Of a stretch of DNA of 21,304 nucleotides, positions 1 through 16,480 are shown piece after piece; the stretch's first letter is position 1, and each line of letters starts with the position of its first letter. Source of the DNA: a virus (taxonomy: Duplodnaviria > Heunggongvirae > Uroviricota > Caudoviricetes); the IMG/VR virus record IMGVR_UViG_2778261461_000001, positions 1-21,304 of that record. The stretch is one strand, 5' to 3'. The notes beneath the pieces were generated by a model. That model was not told the DNA's origin. It searched no databases and worked only from the letters and a program-made list of their open reading frames with translations. A program made the position numbers and the translations under genes.

Positions 1-525
1 CAGCTTCTCAACGGATTTATACCATGGCACTTTAAAGCCAGCATCACTGACAATGAGCGGTGTGGTGTTACTCGGTAGAATGCTCGCAAGGTCGGCTAGA
101 AATTGGTCATGAGCTTTCTTTGAACATTGCTCTGAAAGCGGGAACGCTTTCTCATAAAGAGTAACAGAACGACCGTGTAGTGCGACTGAAGCTCGCAATA
201 CCATAAGCCGTTTTTGCTCACGGATATCAGACCAGTCAACAAGTACAATGGGCATCGTATTGCCCGAACAGATAAAGCTAGCATGCCAACGGTATACAGC
301 GAGTCGCTCTTTGTGGAGGTGACGATTACCTAACAATCGGTCGATTCGTTTGATGTTATGTTTTGTTCTCGCTTTGGTTGGCAGGTTACGGCCAAGTTCG
401 GTAAGAGTGAGAGTTTTACAGTCAAGTAAGGCGTGGCAAGCCAACGTTAAGCTGTTGAGTCGTTTTAAGTGTAATTCGGGGCAGAATTGGTAAAGAGAGT
501 CGTGTAAAATATCGAGTTCGCACAT
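1..525 (-). CDS. IS10 transposase, N-terminal 175 codons (partial, continues beyond window)
   Basis: Minus-strand translation from ATG at 525 gives MCELDILHDSLYQFCPELHLKRLNSLTLACHALLDCKTLTLTELGRNLPTKARTKHNIKR..., recognised as IS10/Tn10 transposase; in frame to the window edge. Not in the ORF track because it has no stop in the window. Confidence 0.9.
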   Translation of the reverse strand, partial: MCELDILHDSLYQFCPELHLKRLNSLTLACHALLDCKTLTLTELGRNLPTKARTKHNIKRIDRLLGNRHLHKERLAVYRWHASFICSGNTMPIVLVDWSDIREQKRLMVLRASVALHGRSVTLYEKAFPLSEQCSKKAHDQFLADLASILPSNTTPLIVSDAGFKVPWYKSVEKL

Positions 526-586
526 TTTGTTGTCTGATTATTGATTTTTGGCGAAACCATTTGATCATATGACAAGATGTGTATCT
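518..586 (+). ncRNA. IS10 RNA-OUT antisense RNA (approximate bounds)
   Basis: Position inferred from the known IS10 layout (pOUT reading outward across the transposase start); sequence ttcgcacattttgttgtctgattattgatttttggcgaaaccatttgatcatatgacaagatgtgtatc resembles RNA-OUT from memory. Bounds are not verified. Confidence 0.45.
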
Positions 587-1119
587 ACCTTAACTTAATG
601 ATTTTGATAAAAATCATTAGGGGATTCATCAGTGCTTGGCAGGCATAATAAGAGGCAATAGAGTAAAAATCCCGAAAGAACAAGATATGCCATGTACGCT
701 TCAATTAACGATGATATATGTCGGCATCACCTTTTTCCTAATTGTCGGTTATATCTGCCATCAAATAACTTAGAACTGATTTAGAATTGAATTTGATAAA
801 GCTTACTACAAAGTAGTTTTGTCAATGTTCAACCTGTTTATCAAACCTACGGTGACTTTTTATGACTGGGAATGGTATCAATACTGTACGCATAAACAAC
901 GAAGTGAAACACATCTCAGAGTTAGATCCGGAGATCTCTTTTTCTTGAATGGAATAAACTGAAAAGTGAAAATAACGAACTGTATCGCTGCATAAAGGAA
1001 GCAAATTCTGGTTGGCGTGGTTTTGTCCTTCGTTTAATAGGGGTTTATCTACCTGATGGCAAAACAATTGTCATTAAACCCTAGATTATTTGAATATTCC
1101 TAAACATAGGCTTAATAAG

Positions 1120-1933: not shown

Positions 1934-2003
1934 AAATAATGACTTCTGTTCCTTTGTGTTTTATGCCGCGTGACTGCTGTTTTACGTTCGGTGCCAGTTT
2001 CAT
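1773..2003 (-). CDS. Hypothetical small protein (76 aa); 3' end reads J-derived DNA out of frame, so likely truncated by the insert/J junction near 1831
   Basis: ATG at 2003 overlaps the upstream stop (ATGA) and is preceded by AGAGG; the C-terminal about 20 codons overlap J-homologous DNA in another frame. Confidence 0.4.
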
Positions 2004-2299
2004 TTTTTACCTCTGAATCCGTTAATCATGGTTTTCATTTTCTGGATATTTCCCCACGCTTTTTCCCTGCTGATGGGCTTACTGCGGGGTGCGGCATATA
2101 CCAGGGAAAAATCACGCCGGAACTGATAAACAGGCATCACGCAGTCATAGCTATACCCCTCACGGCGGTAAGTGATGCGCCGTTCTGCCACGCCTTTAAT
2201 CGTTACCGTGCCGCCGTATTTATCGCGGTAAATATCGCCGTTCATAAATTCAGTTCGAGCGGGGCCGCTGGCAATAAAGCCAGAATTTTTCATTTCCAT
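2000..2299 (-). CDS. Hypothetical small protein (99 aa), fourth gene of small-protein operon
   Basis: ATG with GAGGA 10 nt upstream; ATGA stop/start overlap with the downstream gene; no family recognised. Confidence 0.5.
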   Translation of the reverse strand: MEMKNSGFIASGPARTEFMNGDIYRDKYGGTVTIKGVAERRITYRREGYSYDCVMPVYQFRRDFSLVYAAPRSKPISREKAWGNIQKMKTMINGFRGKK

Positions 2300-2316
2300 A
2301 TTATTTATTCCTCGAC

Positions 2317-2538
2317 TTAACTCGACTTATTTGATAGCAGGGCACTATTTATTGCGTCATTGAGTTTTTCTGCTGATTCATCAATAAGTGACAACAGGCC
2401 ATAAGCAATATTTGCATCTTCATTGTCATTTATGCAATCAAGCCACATATTTAATATTGCTTTTGCTGAATTATTTAAAGTTAATGAACTTTCTGCACAT
2501 GCTAACAATTTAAAAAAGACTTCCCGTTCTGTATTCAT
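2317..2538 (-). CDS. Hypothetical acidic small protein (73 aa), third gene of operon
   Basis: ATG immediately follows the upstream stop at 2539-2541; GGGGGA upstream; predicted helical and acidic; no family recognised. Confidence 0.5.
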   Translation of the reverse strand: MNTEREVFFKLLACAESSLTLNNSAKAILNMWLDCINDNEDANIAYGLLSLIDESAEKLNDAINSALLSNKSS

Positions 2539-2730
2539 TTAATCCCCCACCAGCTTACTTTCTTCCTCAATCAAAAAACTAGCGACACTTCCCGAAAGAC
2601 GCGCCAGTAGGCTCGCCAGTGCGGATATATCAGCATCTGTAATTTTGTTCGGGTATACCTCAAGAAGGCGGCAAATAATTTCTGTCTGGTGCGCACGTTC
2701 AGCGGCTTCGTGTAATGTAATTTCCTGCAT
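2539..2730 (-). CDS. Hypothetical small protein (63 aa), second gene of operon
   Basis: TAATG stop/start overlap with the upstream gene; GAGGTG upstream. Confidence 0.5.
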   Translation of the reverse strand: MQEITLHEAAERAHQTEIICRLLEVYPNKITDADISALASLLARLSGSVASFLIEEESKLVGD

Positions 2731-2915
2731 TAATGCACCTCTTTTAATTCATACATTGCTGAAATAATGACTTGTGATAAGCCATATTCTGATGATTCGC
2801 TTCTCACCGCAGCAATAGCCGTCTGAACATTAACAGCCTTCACATTCTGAGCGATACCAATTGTGTGGCCTATTGGGTTAACAGCTCGGGCAAATACACG
2901 GAAGGTTTTAAGCAT
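2730..2915 (-). CDS. Hypothetical small protein (61 aa), first gene of operon
   Basis: ATG at 2915 with GGGAG 7 nt upstream; lies directly downstream of the divergent regulatory region. Confidence 0.5.
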   Translation of the reverse strand: MLKTFRVFARAVNPIGHTIGIAQNVKAVNVQTAIAAVRSESSEYGLSQVIISAMYELKEVH

Positions 2916-3194
2916 GACTCACTCCCTGGCGGATTTTTGCAGCGAATACAGCAACACAACCGGACGGGCAACGGCTACGCGCTTCGCGTTCCGTCCAGGC
3001 GGTTACGTGGATGATTTGAGATTCTCCGGCACTCAGTGCCAGAAAACGCCACACAAAGGCCGTTTGTGTGTGTACAAGGTGTGGTATATGATTTACAGCA
3101 ACCATAACGGCTCCTAGTTTACGTTGTTGGTTAGACGCCCCGTATGTGTTCCCAGCACTGCGGGGCGTTGCTCTTTGTATTTCAACAATCCTTT

Positions 3195-3275
3195 CGGTGT
3201 GTTTCATGTTATGAGCGCATGAAACACACGTCAAGGCTTTTTGTATTTCTTTTTTTGTGTATACTGAAACACACC
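3195..3275. promoter_or_regulatory. Putative operator/promoter region between the RHH regulator gene and the small-protein operon
   Basis: Inverted repeat GTGTGTTTCATG (3197-3208) - 9 bp - CATGAAACACAC (3218-3229), with a third half-site TGAAACACAC at 3265-3274 overlapping a TATACT -10-like hexamer (3260-3265) about 30 bp upstream of the RHH start. Confidence 0.4.
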
Positions 3276-3295
3276 GATGATTAGGAGTTTCAGAA

Positions 3296-3601
3296 ATGGC
3301 AACGGCTAACAAAAACGCAAAATCACAACTGACAACTGTCAGAGTCCCACTAGATGTTATGCAAGGGATGGAATCCGTTAAGCTGGACGGTGAAAGCAAT
3401 GCCGGATTTATCGTAACCGCCATGCGCGGAGAAATAGCCCGCCGCCAAGCAGAAGGCAGCGGAGAAAATCCCCTTGTGTCGTCACTGGATGCCCTGGCTA
3501 AGGTCGAACAAATCGGCATCAAAGCAGCCGAGGAGATCGGGCAACTCGTCACCGTCGCGCGTGAAGAACTCCAGCGACGCAAGGTCAAAGAGCATGAATA
3601 G
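3296..3601 (+). CDS. Putative ribbon-helix-helix (Arc/CopG-like) transcriptional regulator (101 aa)
   Basis: AGGAG 8 nt upstream of the ATG; N-terminus (TTVRVPLDVMQGMESV...AGFIVTAMRGEIARRQ) has a beta-strand then two helices typical of RHH; sits beside the palindromic operator. Confidence 0.55.
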   Translation: MATANKNAKSQLTTVRVPLDVMQGMESVKLDGESNAGFIVTAMRGEIARRQAEGSGENPLVSSLDALAKVEQIGIKAAEEIGQLVTVAREELQRRKVKEHE

Positions 3602-3658
3602 CCAATATCAGCGCCATAGTTTGAGGAACGCAGGCGCATTGCTTTACAGGACAGCACC

Positions 3659-3838
3659 ATGAGCGACACAGAATCAACCAAAACACCATCACCAACTCGT
3701 AAGAGACGACGCAAAAATATAGCGCATGAACATGAATCAGAAAGATTCGCACCTTGTTCGTTTGCTCTTGAGAAATTCCTTAAAGAGCACAGGAAAAAGC
3801 TCTCGTTGCAAACCTTGGAACGAACCAAATCTGACTGA
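3659..3838 (+). CDS. Hypothetical basic small protein (59 aa); below the ORF-track length cutoff
   Basis: ATG at 3659 with AGGA 7 nt upstream, 57 bp after the RHH gene and followed by a terminator; translation MSDTESTKTPSPTRKRRRKNIAHEHESERFAPCSFALEKFLKEHRKKLSLQTLERTKSD. Confidence 0.3.
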   Translation: MSDTESTKTPSPTRKRRRKNIAHEHESERFAPCSFALEKFLKEHRKKLSLQTLERTKSD

Positions 3839-3904
3839 TCACATTGCCCACCAGCCGCAAATGTGGCATTGTTGGTGATGCTTTTGTTTTCCCTTGTTCC
3901 CACT

Positions 3905-3936
3905 GGCGACCCTTTTGCGGTCGCCTTTGTTTTGTC
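3905..3936 (+). terminator. Rho-independent terminator for the plus-strand RHH/59-aa unit
   Basis: GGCGACC-cttttgc-GGTCGCC hairpin followed by TTTGTTTTGT. Confidence 0.5.
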
Positions 3937-4513
3937 ACTGAATGCGGTTACCAAAGTAAAACTCAGGCTGATATTCACGTATCAGCGTTTTTTCTTCTTC
4001 CTCCAGCTCACGCTTTTTGCGCTTACATGCCTGTAGCTCCCTCCCCTTCTCGCTGGCACTTATTTGATATTGCTCTTTACGGCGGGAAAAATCCTGTAAT
4101 GCACCCCACGGGATACCATAAGTCCCCGTTTTTCTGATACCTGGTATCACATTTCTGAATACCCAGTTACTGAAACGATGAGCAAATGTGCCAGGCGTCG
4201 TTGCTTTGCGGCTGCGGGCTATTAGTTTGTAGAAACCTGACTCAGAGATAATTCTCATATTCTGATTTCCTCCTGGGGTGTAAGTTAAATTTACTCCCTT
4301 TTCATCATCATCAAGCATCTGCAACGCCGTACGCGAATTGGTTAGTTCCAGCGCAGCACAAACATCTTTTGCAACAAACCACGGATCGCCGTTCAGATAC
4401 ACCACACGAACGTTCACACTATCAAAGCGCAGAACGACGAGATCACGAATATCGCAGAATTTTTTCACTGGACGAGCGTACCCCTTGCCCGTCACGGCAA
4501 TATTTTTATTCAT
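3935..4513 (-). CDS. Bro-N domain protein (phage antirepressor-like), 192 aa
   Basis: N-terminal region (FDSVNVRVVYLNGDPWFVAKDVCAALEL) is a recognisable Bro-N/antirepressor-type motif; C-terminus is charged and coiled-coil-like. Confidence 0.7.
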   Translation of the reverse strand: MNKNIAVTGKGYARPVKKFCDIRDLVVLRFDSVNVRVVYLNGDPWFVAKDVCAALELTNSRTALQMLDDDEKGVNLTYTPGGNQNMRIISESGFYKLIARSRKATTPGTFAHRFSNWVFRNVIPGIRKTGTYGIPWGALQDFSRRKEQYQISASEKGRELQACKRKKRELEEEEKTLIREYQPEFYFGNRIQ

Positions 4514-4531
4514 CGCGTTTTTACCTTATAG

Positions 4532-4556
4532 ACAAAAAACCCCTCGTGATGAGGGG
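4532..4556 (-). terminator. Hairpin with T-run after alpA (terminator or attenuator)
   Basis: CCCCTC-gtgat-GAGGGG followed on the minus strand by TTTTTTGT, 14 bp after the alpA stop and about 20 bp before the Bro-N start. Confidence 0.4.
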
Positions 4557-4569
4557 CATTATTTACTGG

Positions 4570-4827
4570 TTATTGCTGTTTTGTTTTTCCAGGTTTCCAT
4601 CCAGGATGCCACTCACCACGGATCCATGCCTGAACCTCTGAAAGTCGATACCCTGCAGCACGTTCACCGATCTTGATACGTCGCGGGAATTTACCTGCCT
4701 GCTCCATTTTCCAGCGTGTTGAGTTTGCCAGCGTGGTAAGTGCTATGCACTCTTTTTCACGAATGAACCGATCAATGTCCTTCATTGTGCGCAAATCGTT
4801 TTCATCAACAAGAGAATAAATTGCCAT
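4570..4827 (-). CDS. alpA: AlpA-family transcriptional regulator / excisionase-like protein (85 aa)
   Basis: Sequence (...GKFPRRIKIGERAAGYRLSEVQAWIRGEW...) matches the AlpA/Vis-type HTH family; start is 1 nt after the integrase stop, GAGGTGG upstream. Confidence 0.8.
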   Translation of the reverse strand: MAIYSLVDENDLRTMKDIDRFIREKECIALTTLANSTRWKMEQAGKFPRRIKIGERAAGYRLSEVQAWIRGEWHPGWKPGKTKQQ

Positions 4828-4828
4828 A

Positions 4829-6070
4829 TCACACCACCTCTTTATTAAGCTCGATAACGTTGTTGTTAAATCCTGCTATCGTATTAAGGTAATTAACCCA
4901 CATATTAAGCACCTCAAGTTTTTTCTTTATATGCCTGCTTTTATTGTAAACACCAGCAACCCCTTTCACTTTATGACCTAAAAGAAGTTCGACAATATAA
5001 GGATCCGCCCCCATATCATTAAGCGTAGTGGAAAATGTGCGCCTGAAATCATGTATGCACCACAAGCCATTAGTATCATGACCAAGACGCCTGCATATTC
5101 TGTTTGCAGCCCCTGTTATTGTCGCCCTTTGCAAAGCACAACCGACAACATAACCGCGATTTTTTGTTTCTGCGTAAAGATTAACGATCCATTGTTTTAT
5201 TCCGTCAGGAACAGGCCTTACTATAGCCTCCTTGTTTTTGCTGTGCTCTTTTGGGACTGTCCATACCCAGTTTTTTAAATCCCATTCGTCCCAGGTGGAT
5301 AGCCTCGCCTCCTGCTGTCGGCAACCAAACACCAGGCAGATAACCATTATTCTTCGGTTATATATTGATGACAGAGTTAGCAAATTATTACCGTAAGCAT
5401 AAGACCATACATCAGCGGTTTCATTGATATTAAGAACGCGATCCCTTATACCGGATGAGCGCCCGACATAACTTACGTTAATATCTCCAAAGGGATCGCA
5501 CGCGATGTATTGCCTGACGCGACAAAAACGCAACGCCTGTTTGATATCAAGAAAAATTGCACCAGACATAACAGGCGCATTTTTTTTGATCCTGTCAAAG
5601 ACGGTAAGCCATGTGTGTAATTTGCACTGTTCTATAGCCATATCACCGATATAGGGGAAGATATGCTTTTCAAATCGTTTTATTAAATATTCATGCTCTT
5701 TTCTGGCTGTTGTGGCGTGATTGTCGTACCAGTAAAACAGCGCATCCCTTACGGTCACTGGTTGCATAGTTTTTTCGGCAGCAAGTTTTATTTGCCTGCG
5801 GGGGTCCAGATTTTCAGCCAGCCATTCACGGCACTGATCACGCATGCGCCTGGCCGTTGCAAGAGACATGTCAGGATAGCGACCAAGTGTAAGCCATACC
5901 GGAGGGGATTCCCTGCCACCAAGACGATAGTAAAAAACAAAGCTGATCCCCCCAACCATGCTTACACGCACAGACAACCCGCGCCCATCCGCTATTGTTT
6001 TTTGTTTGTCCTGCCGTTTTCCGACAAGACTCTTTAACAGTTTGTCACTGAGTTTGTTTTCAATAGCCAT
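4829..6070 (-). CDS. int: Tyrosine recombinase (P4/CP4-57-type integrase with N-terminal arm-binding domain), 413 aa
   Basis: N-terminal DUF4102-like arm-binding region (GRGLSVRV...FYYRLGGRE...LTLGRYPDMSLATAR) and C-terminal catalytic motifs (HDFRRT, LLGHK, GVYNKSRH); GAGGG upstream of the ATG. Confidence 0.85.
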   Translation of the reverse strand: MAIENKLSDKLLKSLVGKRQDKQKTIADGRGLSVRVSMVGGISFVFYYRLGGRESPPVWLTLGRYPDMSLATARRMRDQCREWLAENLDPRRQIKLAAEKTMQPVTVRDALFYWYDNHATTARKEHEYLIKRFEKHIFPYIGDMAIEQCKLHTWLTVFDRIKKNAPVMSGAIFLDIKQALRFCRVRQYIACDPFGDINVSYVGRSSGIRDRVLNINETADVWSYAYGNNLLTLSSIYNRRIMVICLVFGCRQQEARLSTWDEWDLKNWVWTVPKEHSKNKEAIVRPVPDGIKQWIVNLYAETKNRGYVVGCALQRATITGAANRICRRLGHDTNGLWCIHDFRRTFSTTLNDMGADPYIVELLLGHKVKGVAGVYNKSRHIKKKLEVLNMWVNYLNTIAGFNNNVIELNKEVV

Positions 6071-6086
6071 TAAAAGCCCTCAAGAG

Positions 6087-6142
6087 ATTTGCAATACACA
6101 CCCATCCCGATCGCCAATTTGCAATACACATTGCAATACACA
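6087..6142. repeat. Three direct repeats of TTGCAATACACA upstream of the integrase start (candidate arm-type or regulator binding sites)
   Basis: Copies at 6089-6100, 6119-6130 and 6131-6142, 20-70 bp upstream of int. Confidence 0.5.
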
Positions 6143-6270
6143 AAACCGCGAAAAACTGGAAGGGTGATGAACGGTCATCAAAAGCATGGAAAACGACATT
6201 CCAGACGCAGCAAGGGTTTCAGTGGAGTTGGCGAACGATGCGGGCAACTACGGTGAGATGATAGACATAA

Positions 6271-7303
<1,033 letters not shown>

Positions 7304-8342: not shown

Positions 8343-8537
8343 ATGTCAACGAAGAACAAAACCCGCAGAACAACAACCCGCAACATCCGCTTTCCTAACC
8401 AAATGATTGAACAAATTAACATCGCTCTTGAGCAAAAAGGGTCTGGGAATTTCTCAGCCTGGGTCATTGAAGCCTGCCGTCGGAGACTAACGTCAGAAAA
8501 GAGAGCATATACATCAATCCAAAGTGATGATGAATAA
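8343..8537 (+). CDS. Small conserved ORF (64 aa) corresponding to a lambda right-end ORF; possible RHH-like fold
   Basis: DNA matches the remembered lambda right-end region; translation MSTKNKTRRTTTRNIRFPNQMIEQINIALEQKGSGNFSAWVIEACRRRL... Confidence 0.45.
   Translation: MSTKNKTRRTTTRNIRFPNQMIEQINIALEQKGSGNFSAWVIEACRRRLTSEKRAYTSIQSDDE

Positions 8538-16264: not shown

Positions 16265-16480
<216 letters not shown>

Follow-up and report, generated by a model that had tools for sequence, protein, structure and literature searches.

A ribbon-helix-helix gene divergent from a replication operon

The stretch of DNA analysed here (21,304 nucleotides of the IMG/VR record IMGVR_UViG_2778261461_000001, hereafter the window) carries a phage satellite of the EcCICFT073 type, which belongs to the Gram-negative phage-inducible chromosomal islands (PICIs) and here lies within a helper prophage. 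This context had not been recognised in the original prediction, which had drawn attention to a gene for a ribbon-helix-helix (RHH) protein next to a palindromic repeat. The gene encodes a 101-amino-acid (aa) protein of the YlcI/YnfO family (3296-3601, plus strand; Shine-Dalgarno sequence AGGAG at 3283-3287) and, as had been proposed, it is arranged divergently from an operon of five small genes on the minus strand (3105-2000). The first of them is icd-like (3105-2908; NF033153 phage_ICD_like, 63.7 bits), three small open reading frames (ORFs) are tightly packed behind it (2915-2730, 2730-2539 and 2538-2317, all on the minus strand), and the last operon gene in the window encodes a DUF4222 protein (2299-2000, minus strand). 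In intact elements, the operon goes on to the genes for primase, single-stranded DNA-binding protein (SSB), capsid, decoration protein and TerS.

The repeat array and the predicted promoters

The intergenic region contains a perfect inverted repeat, GTGTGTTTCATG at 3197-3208 and CATGAAACACAC at 3218-3229, whose arms are complementary at 12/12 positions and separated by a 9-nt spacer according to a repeat finder. The repeat had been noticed before, in a region said to start at 3195; the repeat itself is real and that start is 2 nt early, which is trivial. Order-1 Markov simulations give an expectation of 0.03 perfect 12-nt inverted repeats (spacer ≤30 nt) per 21.3-kb window. A third copy, TGAAACACAC at 3265-3274, overlaps the last base of a -10-like hexamer (TATACT, 3260-3265), again as originally described. 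This 10-mer occurs exactly three times in the whole window, counting both strands, and all occurrences lie within 3197-3274. A 13-nt perfect match joins TCGGTGTGTTTCA (3194-3206) and TGAAACACACCGA (3265-3277), and degenerate copies in the same register are found at 3241-3249 (TTGTATTTC) and 3175-3184 (TTGTATTTCA). The array is non-random.

A consensus scan detects a single sigma-70-like promoter on the minus strand of the intergenic region (3206-3234), made up of the -35 hexamer TTGACG (3234-3229), a 17-nt spacer and the -10 hexamer TAACAT (3211-3206), with a predicted start at ~3199. It is the predicted leftward promoter of the icd-like operon. The TATACT hexamer, read from the sequence on the plus strand, is the predicted -10 of the RHH gene's own promoter. 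Four predicted operator sites fall on these elements. Site S1 (TCGGTGTGTTTCATG, 3194-3208) contains the left arm of the inverted repeat and overlaps both the -10 of the leftward promoter and its predicted start; S2 (CATGAAACACAC, 3218-3229) is the right arm, which fills the spacer of the same promoter and abuts its -35. The degenerate site S3 (TTGTATTTC, 3241-3249) matches GTGTGTTTC at 7/9 positions and lies in the -35 region of the rightward promoter, and S4 (TGAAACACACCGA, 3265-3277), directly after the rightward -10, overlaps the end of this hexamer and the predicted start (~3272). All related loci have a site equivalent to S1, about 99 nt ahead of the ATG, and the S3 slot holds a good copy of the repeat of the respective class in other specificity classes, which are described below. 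In most of the 20 loci scanned, a leftward -35 of the TTGAC- or TTGAA-type lies at ~-67 from the RHH ATG and is followed after 16-18 nt by a TAnnnT -10, and a TATAAT, TATACT, TATATT or TATAGT hexamer is present at -36/-35. The two predicted promoters are thus divergent, keep fixed positions across related loci and overlap the repeat array.

The RHH protein

The 101-aa protein matches the NCBIfam family NF041551 (YlcI_YnfO_N) at residues 9-50 with 63.3 bits, the cut-off being 30, and identical proteins carry the YlcI/YnfO name in RefSeq. There is no Pfam match above threshold; the protein has a weak match to PF07704 only. The AlphaFold2 model, based on 31 homologues, has an extended segment at residues 10-17, helices at 19-28 and 35-53, a short linker and a long helix at 59-100 (mean pLDDT, the model's per-residue confidence score, 80.5); the N-terminal 57 residues modelled alone reach a pLDDT of 86. 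This succession of an N-terminal beta-strand and two helices is that of the RHH superfamily. The strand, in which hydrophobic and polar residues alternate, follows the pattern S-Q-x-x-x-x-R-x-P with R16 and P18 invariant, and hardly any variation is seen in G32-E33-S34-N35. The strand has an end of the Arc/Mnt type (V-R-V-P-x-D-V), and G-E-S-N forms the turn ahead of helix B. Structure prediction therefore agrees with the RHH assignment put forward from the sequence, and the fold matches of the modelled N-terminal domain point unambiguously to RHH proteins. The fold matches include Arc, ParG, omega, AmrZ, MazE, ParD, TacA and HicB, with the modest scores of a 45-residue monomer. A Foldseek search of the N-terminal domain against the PDB returned nothing significant, and sequence and profile searches of the PDB, as well as hhalign comparisons with Arc and Mnt, gave weak matches only, though in register. 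In a profile search, residues 45-86 (window 3428-3553), with E71, I73 and G74 invariant, gave a marginal match (E = 0.004) to the helix-hairpin-helix domain of Hef (1x2i). This match was not relied upon, because AlphaFold2 gives one continuous helix there.

The family comprises 73 representatives at 50% identity, about 12 of which have two domains; most of the others are short (mostly ~45-90 aa) and, like YlcI and YnfO, match the N-terminal domain only. Full-length homologues were found across the Enterobacterales, and of the 5426 complete E. coli genomes 711 carry the gene, Nissle 1917, ATCC 25922 and CFT073 among them. Some genomes have two or three copies, for example NZ_CP028192.1 with three. 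A tblastn search of 50,697 phage records gave no homologue match.

Many RHH proteins are antitoxins, and the occurrence of MazE, ParD, TacA and HicB among the fold matches, together with the PF07704 match, might suggest that this protein is the antitoxin of a type II system. Its partner could then be the divergent Icd-like protein, whose relatives are annotated as division inhibitors, or the product of an ORF located 3' of the RHH gene (3659-3838, plus strand), which encodes a very basic 59-aa protein with a KRRRK motif matching phrog_21027 and is probably co-transcribed with it. Nevertheless, the conservation of the RHH gene does not extend to this ORF, which is kept in EcCICFT073 and missing from many other related loci. 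Searches of Pfam, NCBIfam and PHROG gave it no match to a toxin family or to any other family with a function, which leaves the RHH gene without a recognisable adjacent toxin. No C-terminal toxin-binding tail is evident in the RHH protein either, and the repressor hypothesis developed below already includes the silencing of a toxic icd-like gene at the level of transcription. An antitoxin role is the least probable of the explanations considered here.

Co-variation of the repeats with the strand residues

The control region was compared among 23 loci from ~10 genera, aligned on the conserved -35. They come from several lineages of E. coli (Nissle 1917 and CFT073 among them) and, in other genera, from Xenorhabdus, Photorhabdus, Enterobacter, Erwinia, Serratia, Klebsiella, Yersinia and Phytobacter. 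All of them carry repeats in four shared slots, at about -99, -76, -53 and -30 from the ATG, and the groups defined by the repeat sequence coincide with those defined by the residues of the predicted beta-strand, which divides the 23 loci into 10 classes. The mean Jaccard similarity of the repeated 7-mers is 0.468 within classes vs 0.023 between them, a difference that was reached in 0 of 5000 label permutations. Class A is that of the window, class B that of Nissle with the repeat GGTGTAAGTA, and class C has the repeat GTGATTC. At residues 10-18, the strand SQLTTVRVP goes with the repeat GTGTGTTTCA in E. coli, Xenorhabdus and Photorhabdus, and also in Serratia (SQLFTVRVP); SQMTT[LI]RVP with GTGA(G)ATATAC in E. 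coli and Yersinia; SQSLTARIP with GGTGTAAG(T/A) in E. coli (including Nissle), Enterobacter and Klebsiella; and SQ[LVI]KN[IV]R[IV]P with GTGTG(T/C)ATTT in Erwinia, 'Martelella' and Serratia. In E. coli, SKQISIRIP is paired with GTGTGATTC and SQMKNIRFP with a GGTGT(A/G)TGTAC-like repeat; SQQ[LI]NARFP is paired with TGG(T/G)ATTCA in E. coli and Phytobacter, SQMISTRVP with GGTGTAGTC in locus L024, and SQALKARVP with GGTGTGGCCCAC in EcCICFT073. Within the protein, variation clusters at strand positions 12-15 and 17, beside the invariant residues. The orientation of the sites depends on the class and their position is constant.

Since linked DNA diverges together, both flanks were checked. On the operon side, the Icd-like protein hardly differs among the window (class A), L014 (class B), L018 (class F) and L020 (class G), and it is very different between the window and the Xenorhabdus loci, both of class A. 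On the other flank, the L016 protein is 95% identical to that of the window in its C-terminal half, and its strand and sites are different. At the DNA level, five E. coli alleles belonging to other classes were compared with the window. In four of them, identity dips in the operator (61-67%) and is higher in icd-like (83-92%) and in RHH codons 57-101 (74-88%). The icd-like region of the fifth, L016, is diverged; among its remaining segments, identity is lowest in codons 1-18 (59%) and the 5' untranslated region (61%), and reaches 74% in the operator and 87% in codons 57-101. In the class-A allele of Xenorhabdus, the operator is the best-conserved segment (85%, vs 56-74% elsewhere). The predicted sites co-vary with the predicted strand residues allele by allele, independently of both flanks. 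This pattern provides strong, if indirect, support for sequence-specific binding through the side chains of the strand. It also allowed a prediction: the Serratia allele L027, with the strand x-K-N-x-R, has class-E-like sites, as expected.

These comparisons bear on a further explanation, in which the inverted repeat would be an RNA hairpin, terminator or attenuator, or else the site of AlpA, of the Icd-like protein or of a factor from the helper phage, and the RHH gene would be adjacent by coincidence. On the plus strand, pairing can continue beyond the inverted repeat to give an imperfect hairpin of 26 nt with a T-rich run after it, and the PHROG families that match the Icd-like protein are labelled 'transcriptional repressor'. 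Nevertheless, the first two sites are direct and not inverted in classes E and H, and therefore no hairpin is conserved. As for other proteins, the repeats track the RHH strand residues and not the Icd-like protein, which is nearly the same across four operator classes, and the same RHH allele and operator co-occur with AlpA genes of different length. Neither the Icd-like protein nor AlpA tracks the operator classes, and both were rejected as readers of the repeats. Taken together, the RNA and other-protein explanations seem improbable.

Two class-A modules lie in opposite orientation within ~13 kb on the same contig of Xenorhabdus vietnamensis (L008 and L009); one copy has point changes in two sites (TGAAATACAC and TGTAACACAC).

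A candidate repressor of Gram-negative PICIs

We propose that the RHH protein is an autoregulated repressor that occludes the promoter of the icd-like/replication operon in PICIs of the EcCICFT073 type, a hypothesis to which we give a probability of about 0.7. RHH dimers would insert their beta-ribbon into sites of ~10 bp, offered in four slots ~21-24 bp apart. S1 and S2 bracket the leftward -10 and the spacer, and their occupancy would exclude RNA polymerase. This exclusion would silence the icd-like, small-ORF and DUF4222 genes, plus the primase gene in intact elements. Binding at S4, together with S3, on the -10 and start of the protein's own promoter would result in negative autoregulation. 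The conserved C-terminal helix probably links dimers at neighbouring sites, which lie two turns of the DNA helix from one another, in a manner comparable to Mnt or TraM, or it may take up an inducing signal. The protein alleles and the operators would have diversified together into at least ten specificity classes, in the manner of phage immunity groups.

Alternatively, the RHH protein could bind the repeats as an activator or timing factor, or the sites could form iterons or a centromere-like array of the excised satellite. ParG, omega and AmrZ have such roles and their folds are among the fold matches; the four sites are regularly spaced, and AlpA alone suffices to induce EcCICFT073. Yet, the sites coincide with the -35, -10 and +1 of two predicted promoters whose positions are conserved, which is a geometry of occlusion. 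Moreover, the PICI origin of replication has been mapped downstream of pri (PMC6092414, PMC10111431), and no partition ATPase gene is present in the loci examined. An activating or iteron-like role is thus unlikely, and it is the strongest of the competing explanations.

Several observations weigh against the repressor hypothesis. We infer the binding, the sign of the regulation and the oligomerisation, and the transcription starts are predicted. The AlphaFold2 models are monomers, in which the ribbon is not visible as a sheet. EcCICFT073 itself encodes a 59-aa version of the protein (NC_004431 1380473-1380652; L030 18474-18653), in which the RHH domain is joined directly to an RRKAKEQE tail by in-frame loss of the long C-terminal helix; two direct GGTGTGGCCCAC repeats flank this short form, and a homologue of the window's 59-aa basic ORF follows it. 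A second prediction from the co-variation failed: the replacement of L12 by M12 alters the site (L025/L026) and does not keep the class-A specificity. The idea that strand positions 12, 14 and 16 alone set the specificity did not hold for the M-T-T-[LI] class. Co-variation of linked DNA can also arise from cassette exchange without any direct interaction, although the behaviour of both flanks contradicts simple linkage. AlpA is an experimentally established activator whose overexpression alone leads to uncontrolled excision and replication of EcCICFT073 (PMC6092414); any repression by the RHH protein can therefore be overridden. Finally, the satellite copy in the window is truncated and unable to replicate. 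Because of this truncation, the RHH/operator module of the window is probably a relic, though it is intact and identical to the copies of complete elements.

In the published data on how Gram-negative PICIs are controlled, the only activator identified is AlpA (PMC6092414), and the existence of a repressor was described as "unclear" by Fillol-Salom 2018. In later surveys the gene either appears under no more than the label 'YlcI/YnfO, prophage-associated protein' or goes unmentioned. A description of the module was not found in the searchable literature, which covers subscription journals thinly, so that an earlier description is possible. The type of mechanism, an RHH repressor, is well known; what is new is a testable candidate for the repressor of Gram-negative PICIs and a natural series of specificities. 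These islands are common phage satellites that shape phage-host interactions and gene transfer. If the RHH protein is their repressor, it would be a concrete candidate for the control of their quiescence, would explain how several such satellites could be regulated independently in one cell, and would provide a small set of orthogonal repressor/operator pairs for engineering PICI-based delivery vehicles.

The satellite, its neighbours and the override of repression

The DNA of the window is chromosomal, from the ybhC side of the lambda attachment region in E. coli, and contains a decayed lambdoid prophage. Nu1, W and a portal fragment occupy 7954-6219, and Bor, the lysis genes, a porin, Q, RusA and int lie farther right; the terminase large subunit and most head and tail genes are missing. 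The satellite extends over ~1940-6200, inside the lambdoid portal gene (prophage portal part at 6219-7100), and in the window it is truncated after DUF4222. An intact copy, 99.9-100% identical to that of the window, is present in strain EC93, where it cuts the prophage portal gene into two annotated halves and where DUF4222 is followed by primase, SSB, major capsid, decoration protein, a helix-turn-helix (HTH) gene and TerS. The integration/Bro zone of the satellite (3935-6070) consists of int (6070-4829), alpA (4827-4570) and a Bro-N gene (4513-3935; Pfam E = 4.9e-20), all on the minus strand and running towards the RHH gene. This gene content is that of the model Gram-negative PICI EcCICFT073. 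The PICI of Nissle at tRNA-Pro is likewise an intact element. The co-oriented succession of int, alpA, Bro zone, primase zone and late zone, and the insertion in a prophage late gene of the intact EC93 copy, are those of a helper-embedded PICI in the scheme of Mageeney et al. (PMC10111431). In every locus examined, the order int - alpA - (Bro/Ant) - RHH, divergent from icd-like ... primase, is kept. L016 and L017 (E. coli) carry satellites of the same type beside lambda-like head decoration (HDPD) and major capsid (Phage_cap_E) genes, and are further helper-embedded insertions in a different late gene. Rfam detects an int-alpA RNA between int and alpA in two relatives (L003 7326-7394 and L024 6026-6091) and isrN 3' of the RHH gene in another (L011 1907-2049). 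Directly upstream of the satellite int, at 6090-6141, there are three direct copies of TGCAATACAC, which may be arm-type sites of the integrase or AlpA sites.

The proximity of the Bro-N gene had led to the suggestion of a circuit like that of P22 immI, in which the main task of the RHH protein would be to repress an antirepressor, as Arc and Mnt repress ant. The anti-repressor-like gene is 330 bp away, the fold resembles those of Arc and Mnt, and, as in P22 immI, putative RHH operators lie on divergent, overlapping promoters. Nevertheless, this part of the original prediction is not supported. The RHH gene stands between the repeats and Bro-N, which belongs to the convergent int-alpA-bro unit and has no copy of the repeat near its 5' end; the promoter that bears the repeats drives the icd-like and replication genes and no antirepressor. 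Furthermore, Bro-N is missing from many loci that carry the module, such as L018, L020, L022, L025 and EcCICFT073. The P22-like circuit is therefore very improbable.

In the satellite of the window, the RHH unit alone points in the direction opposite to the remaining genes. Its transcription would be closed by a hairpin resembling an intrinsic terminator (3905-3935, plus strand), which lies just past the bro stop codon and has a T-run on the plus strand only, with none on the minus strand. Because all but the RHH unit are co-oriented and this T-run is restricted to the plus strand, antisense read-through is conceivable: upon induction, AlpA-dependent transcription from the int-alpA-bro unit could traverse the RHH gene in antisense and enter the replication operon. 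In the embedded state, late transcription of the helper could do the same. Such read-through would both bypass the repressor and dampen its production, an override that could exist and is more speculative than the repression itself. The Pseudomonas AlpA is reported to be an antiterminator. In the most extended form of the hypothesis, the RHH protein would be the repressor so far missing from Gram-negative PICIs, at least ten heteroimmune classes would have arisen by exchange of a ~170-bp cassette (the four operator sites plus about the first 18 codons of the RHH gene), AlpA would override repression through antisense transcription, and the whole would be a protein-based counterpart of the P4 P_LE/CI/P_LL switch. 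This combination is offered tentatively, as a possibility that may well turn out otherwise.

The leader of the leftward transcript (3103-3175) contains a conserved GC-rich hairpin (3135-3168, minus strand), with compensatory changes in 9 of its 14 predicted pairs among 14 loci, followed by the invariant CUCUAACCA and by a small hairpin that presents the Shine-Dalgarno sequence. Read on the plus strand, the leader hairpin and a T-rich run resemble an intrinsic terminator. A small antisense RNA, transcribed from a promoter opposite the icd-like start and ending at the terminator-like hairpin (3135-3183), was considered and dropped, because the Icd-like coding sequence (TQTxPKFxW motif) accounts for the conservation of this DNA.

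To the left of the satellite, an ORF on the minus strand (1175-1933) is an in-frame fusion of two pieces, one a fragment of the tail-tip protein J (Ig_J_second) and the other the C-terminal half of an H-NS-like protein (Histone_HNS_N, Histone_HNS), and looks like a deletion or rearrangement junction. A full-length Rfam match to RNA-OUT (518-587, plus strand, 97 bits) places the end of an IS10-type element in the left part of the window. Between ybhC and ybhJ, the REP-derived nucleoid-associated RNA naRNA4 is matched barely over the Rfam gathering score (16328-16398, minus strand).

Comparison with known systems

The prophage proteins YlcI (DLP12) and YnfO (Qin) share the N-terminal domain (NF041551) of the 101-aa protein. 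They differ in being ~60-77 aa long, with the RHH-like domain only, and in their location beside cos/nohD in lambdoid prophages; they have no described function. The window itself includes a second member of this domain family, a canonical prophage ylcI gene for 64 aa (8343-8537, plus strand), between the cos/Nu1 region and bor, and inspection by eye revealed no comparable repeat array upstream of it.

Arc and Mnt of P22 immI are likewise small RHH repressors with the strand motif R-x-P-x-E/D-V, a G-x-S loop and operators over divergent promoters. Mnt consists of an RHH domain followed by a C-terminal helical oligomerisation domain, and the 101-aa protein likewise has an RHH domain and a C-terminal helix. 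Yet, it has no significant sequence relationship to either, and the half-sites are ~21-24 bp apart here as against ~11 bp in P22. The systems also differ in what is controlled, an operon of icd-like and replication genes in a satellite here, and an antirepressor in a phage in the case of P22. The omega repressor of pSM19035 (PDB 1irq, 2bnw) is another RHH operator-repressor found among the fold matches; however, its heptads are contiguous, whereas the sites described here are two helical turns apart, and it belongs to a plasmid copy-number and partition system.

The organisation of the operon recalls the immunity systems of P4 (P_LE, CI RNA, P_LL) and P1 (immI, c4-icd-ant), in which the early operon also starts with an icd/kil-like gene and leads to the primase, and in which transcripts of a co-directional upstream gene of the alpA/vis type could override immunity. 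The first operon gene of the window is indeed icd/kil-like. In contrast to these systems, the candidate immunity factor at the promoter is a protein: the Rfam families C4, c4-a1b1 and isrK have no match in the window, at the gathering score or with E up to 10, and neither a C4/CI RNA nor its targets were found there. In L015, which has the same RHH allele as L014, a C4 RNA and a1/b1 targets lie just 3' of icd-like (2366-2453 and 2521-2570, minus strand). Protein and RNA layers of immunity can therefore coexist, and the notion that the RHH protein simply replaces the immunity RNA was dropped as a general rule, L015 having both.

Among PICIs, the natural counterparts are Stl and Rpr of the Gram-positive islands, including the Staphylococcus aureus pathogenicity islands (SaPIs). 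Stl proteins differ in being helix-turn-helix proteins, and the known inducing step of the Gram-negative elements is activation by AlpA, with no helper-phage derepressor in evidence. What the two groups of islands have in common is their layout, a lone gene divergent from the replication operon with the control region between them (PMC6092414).

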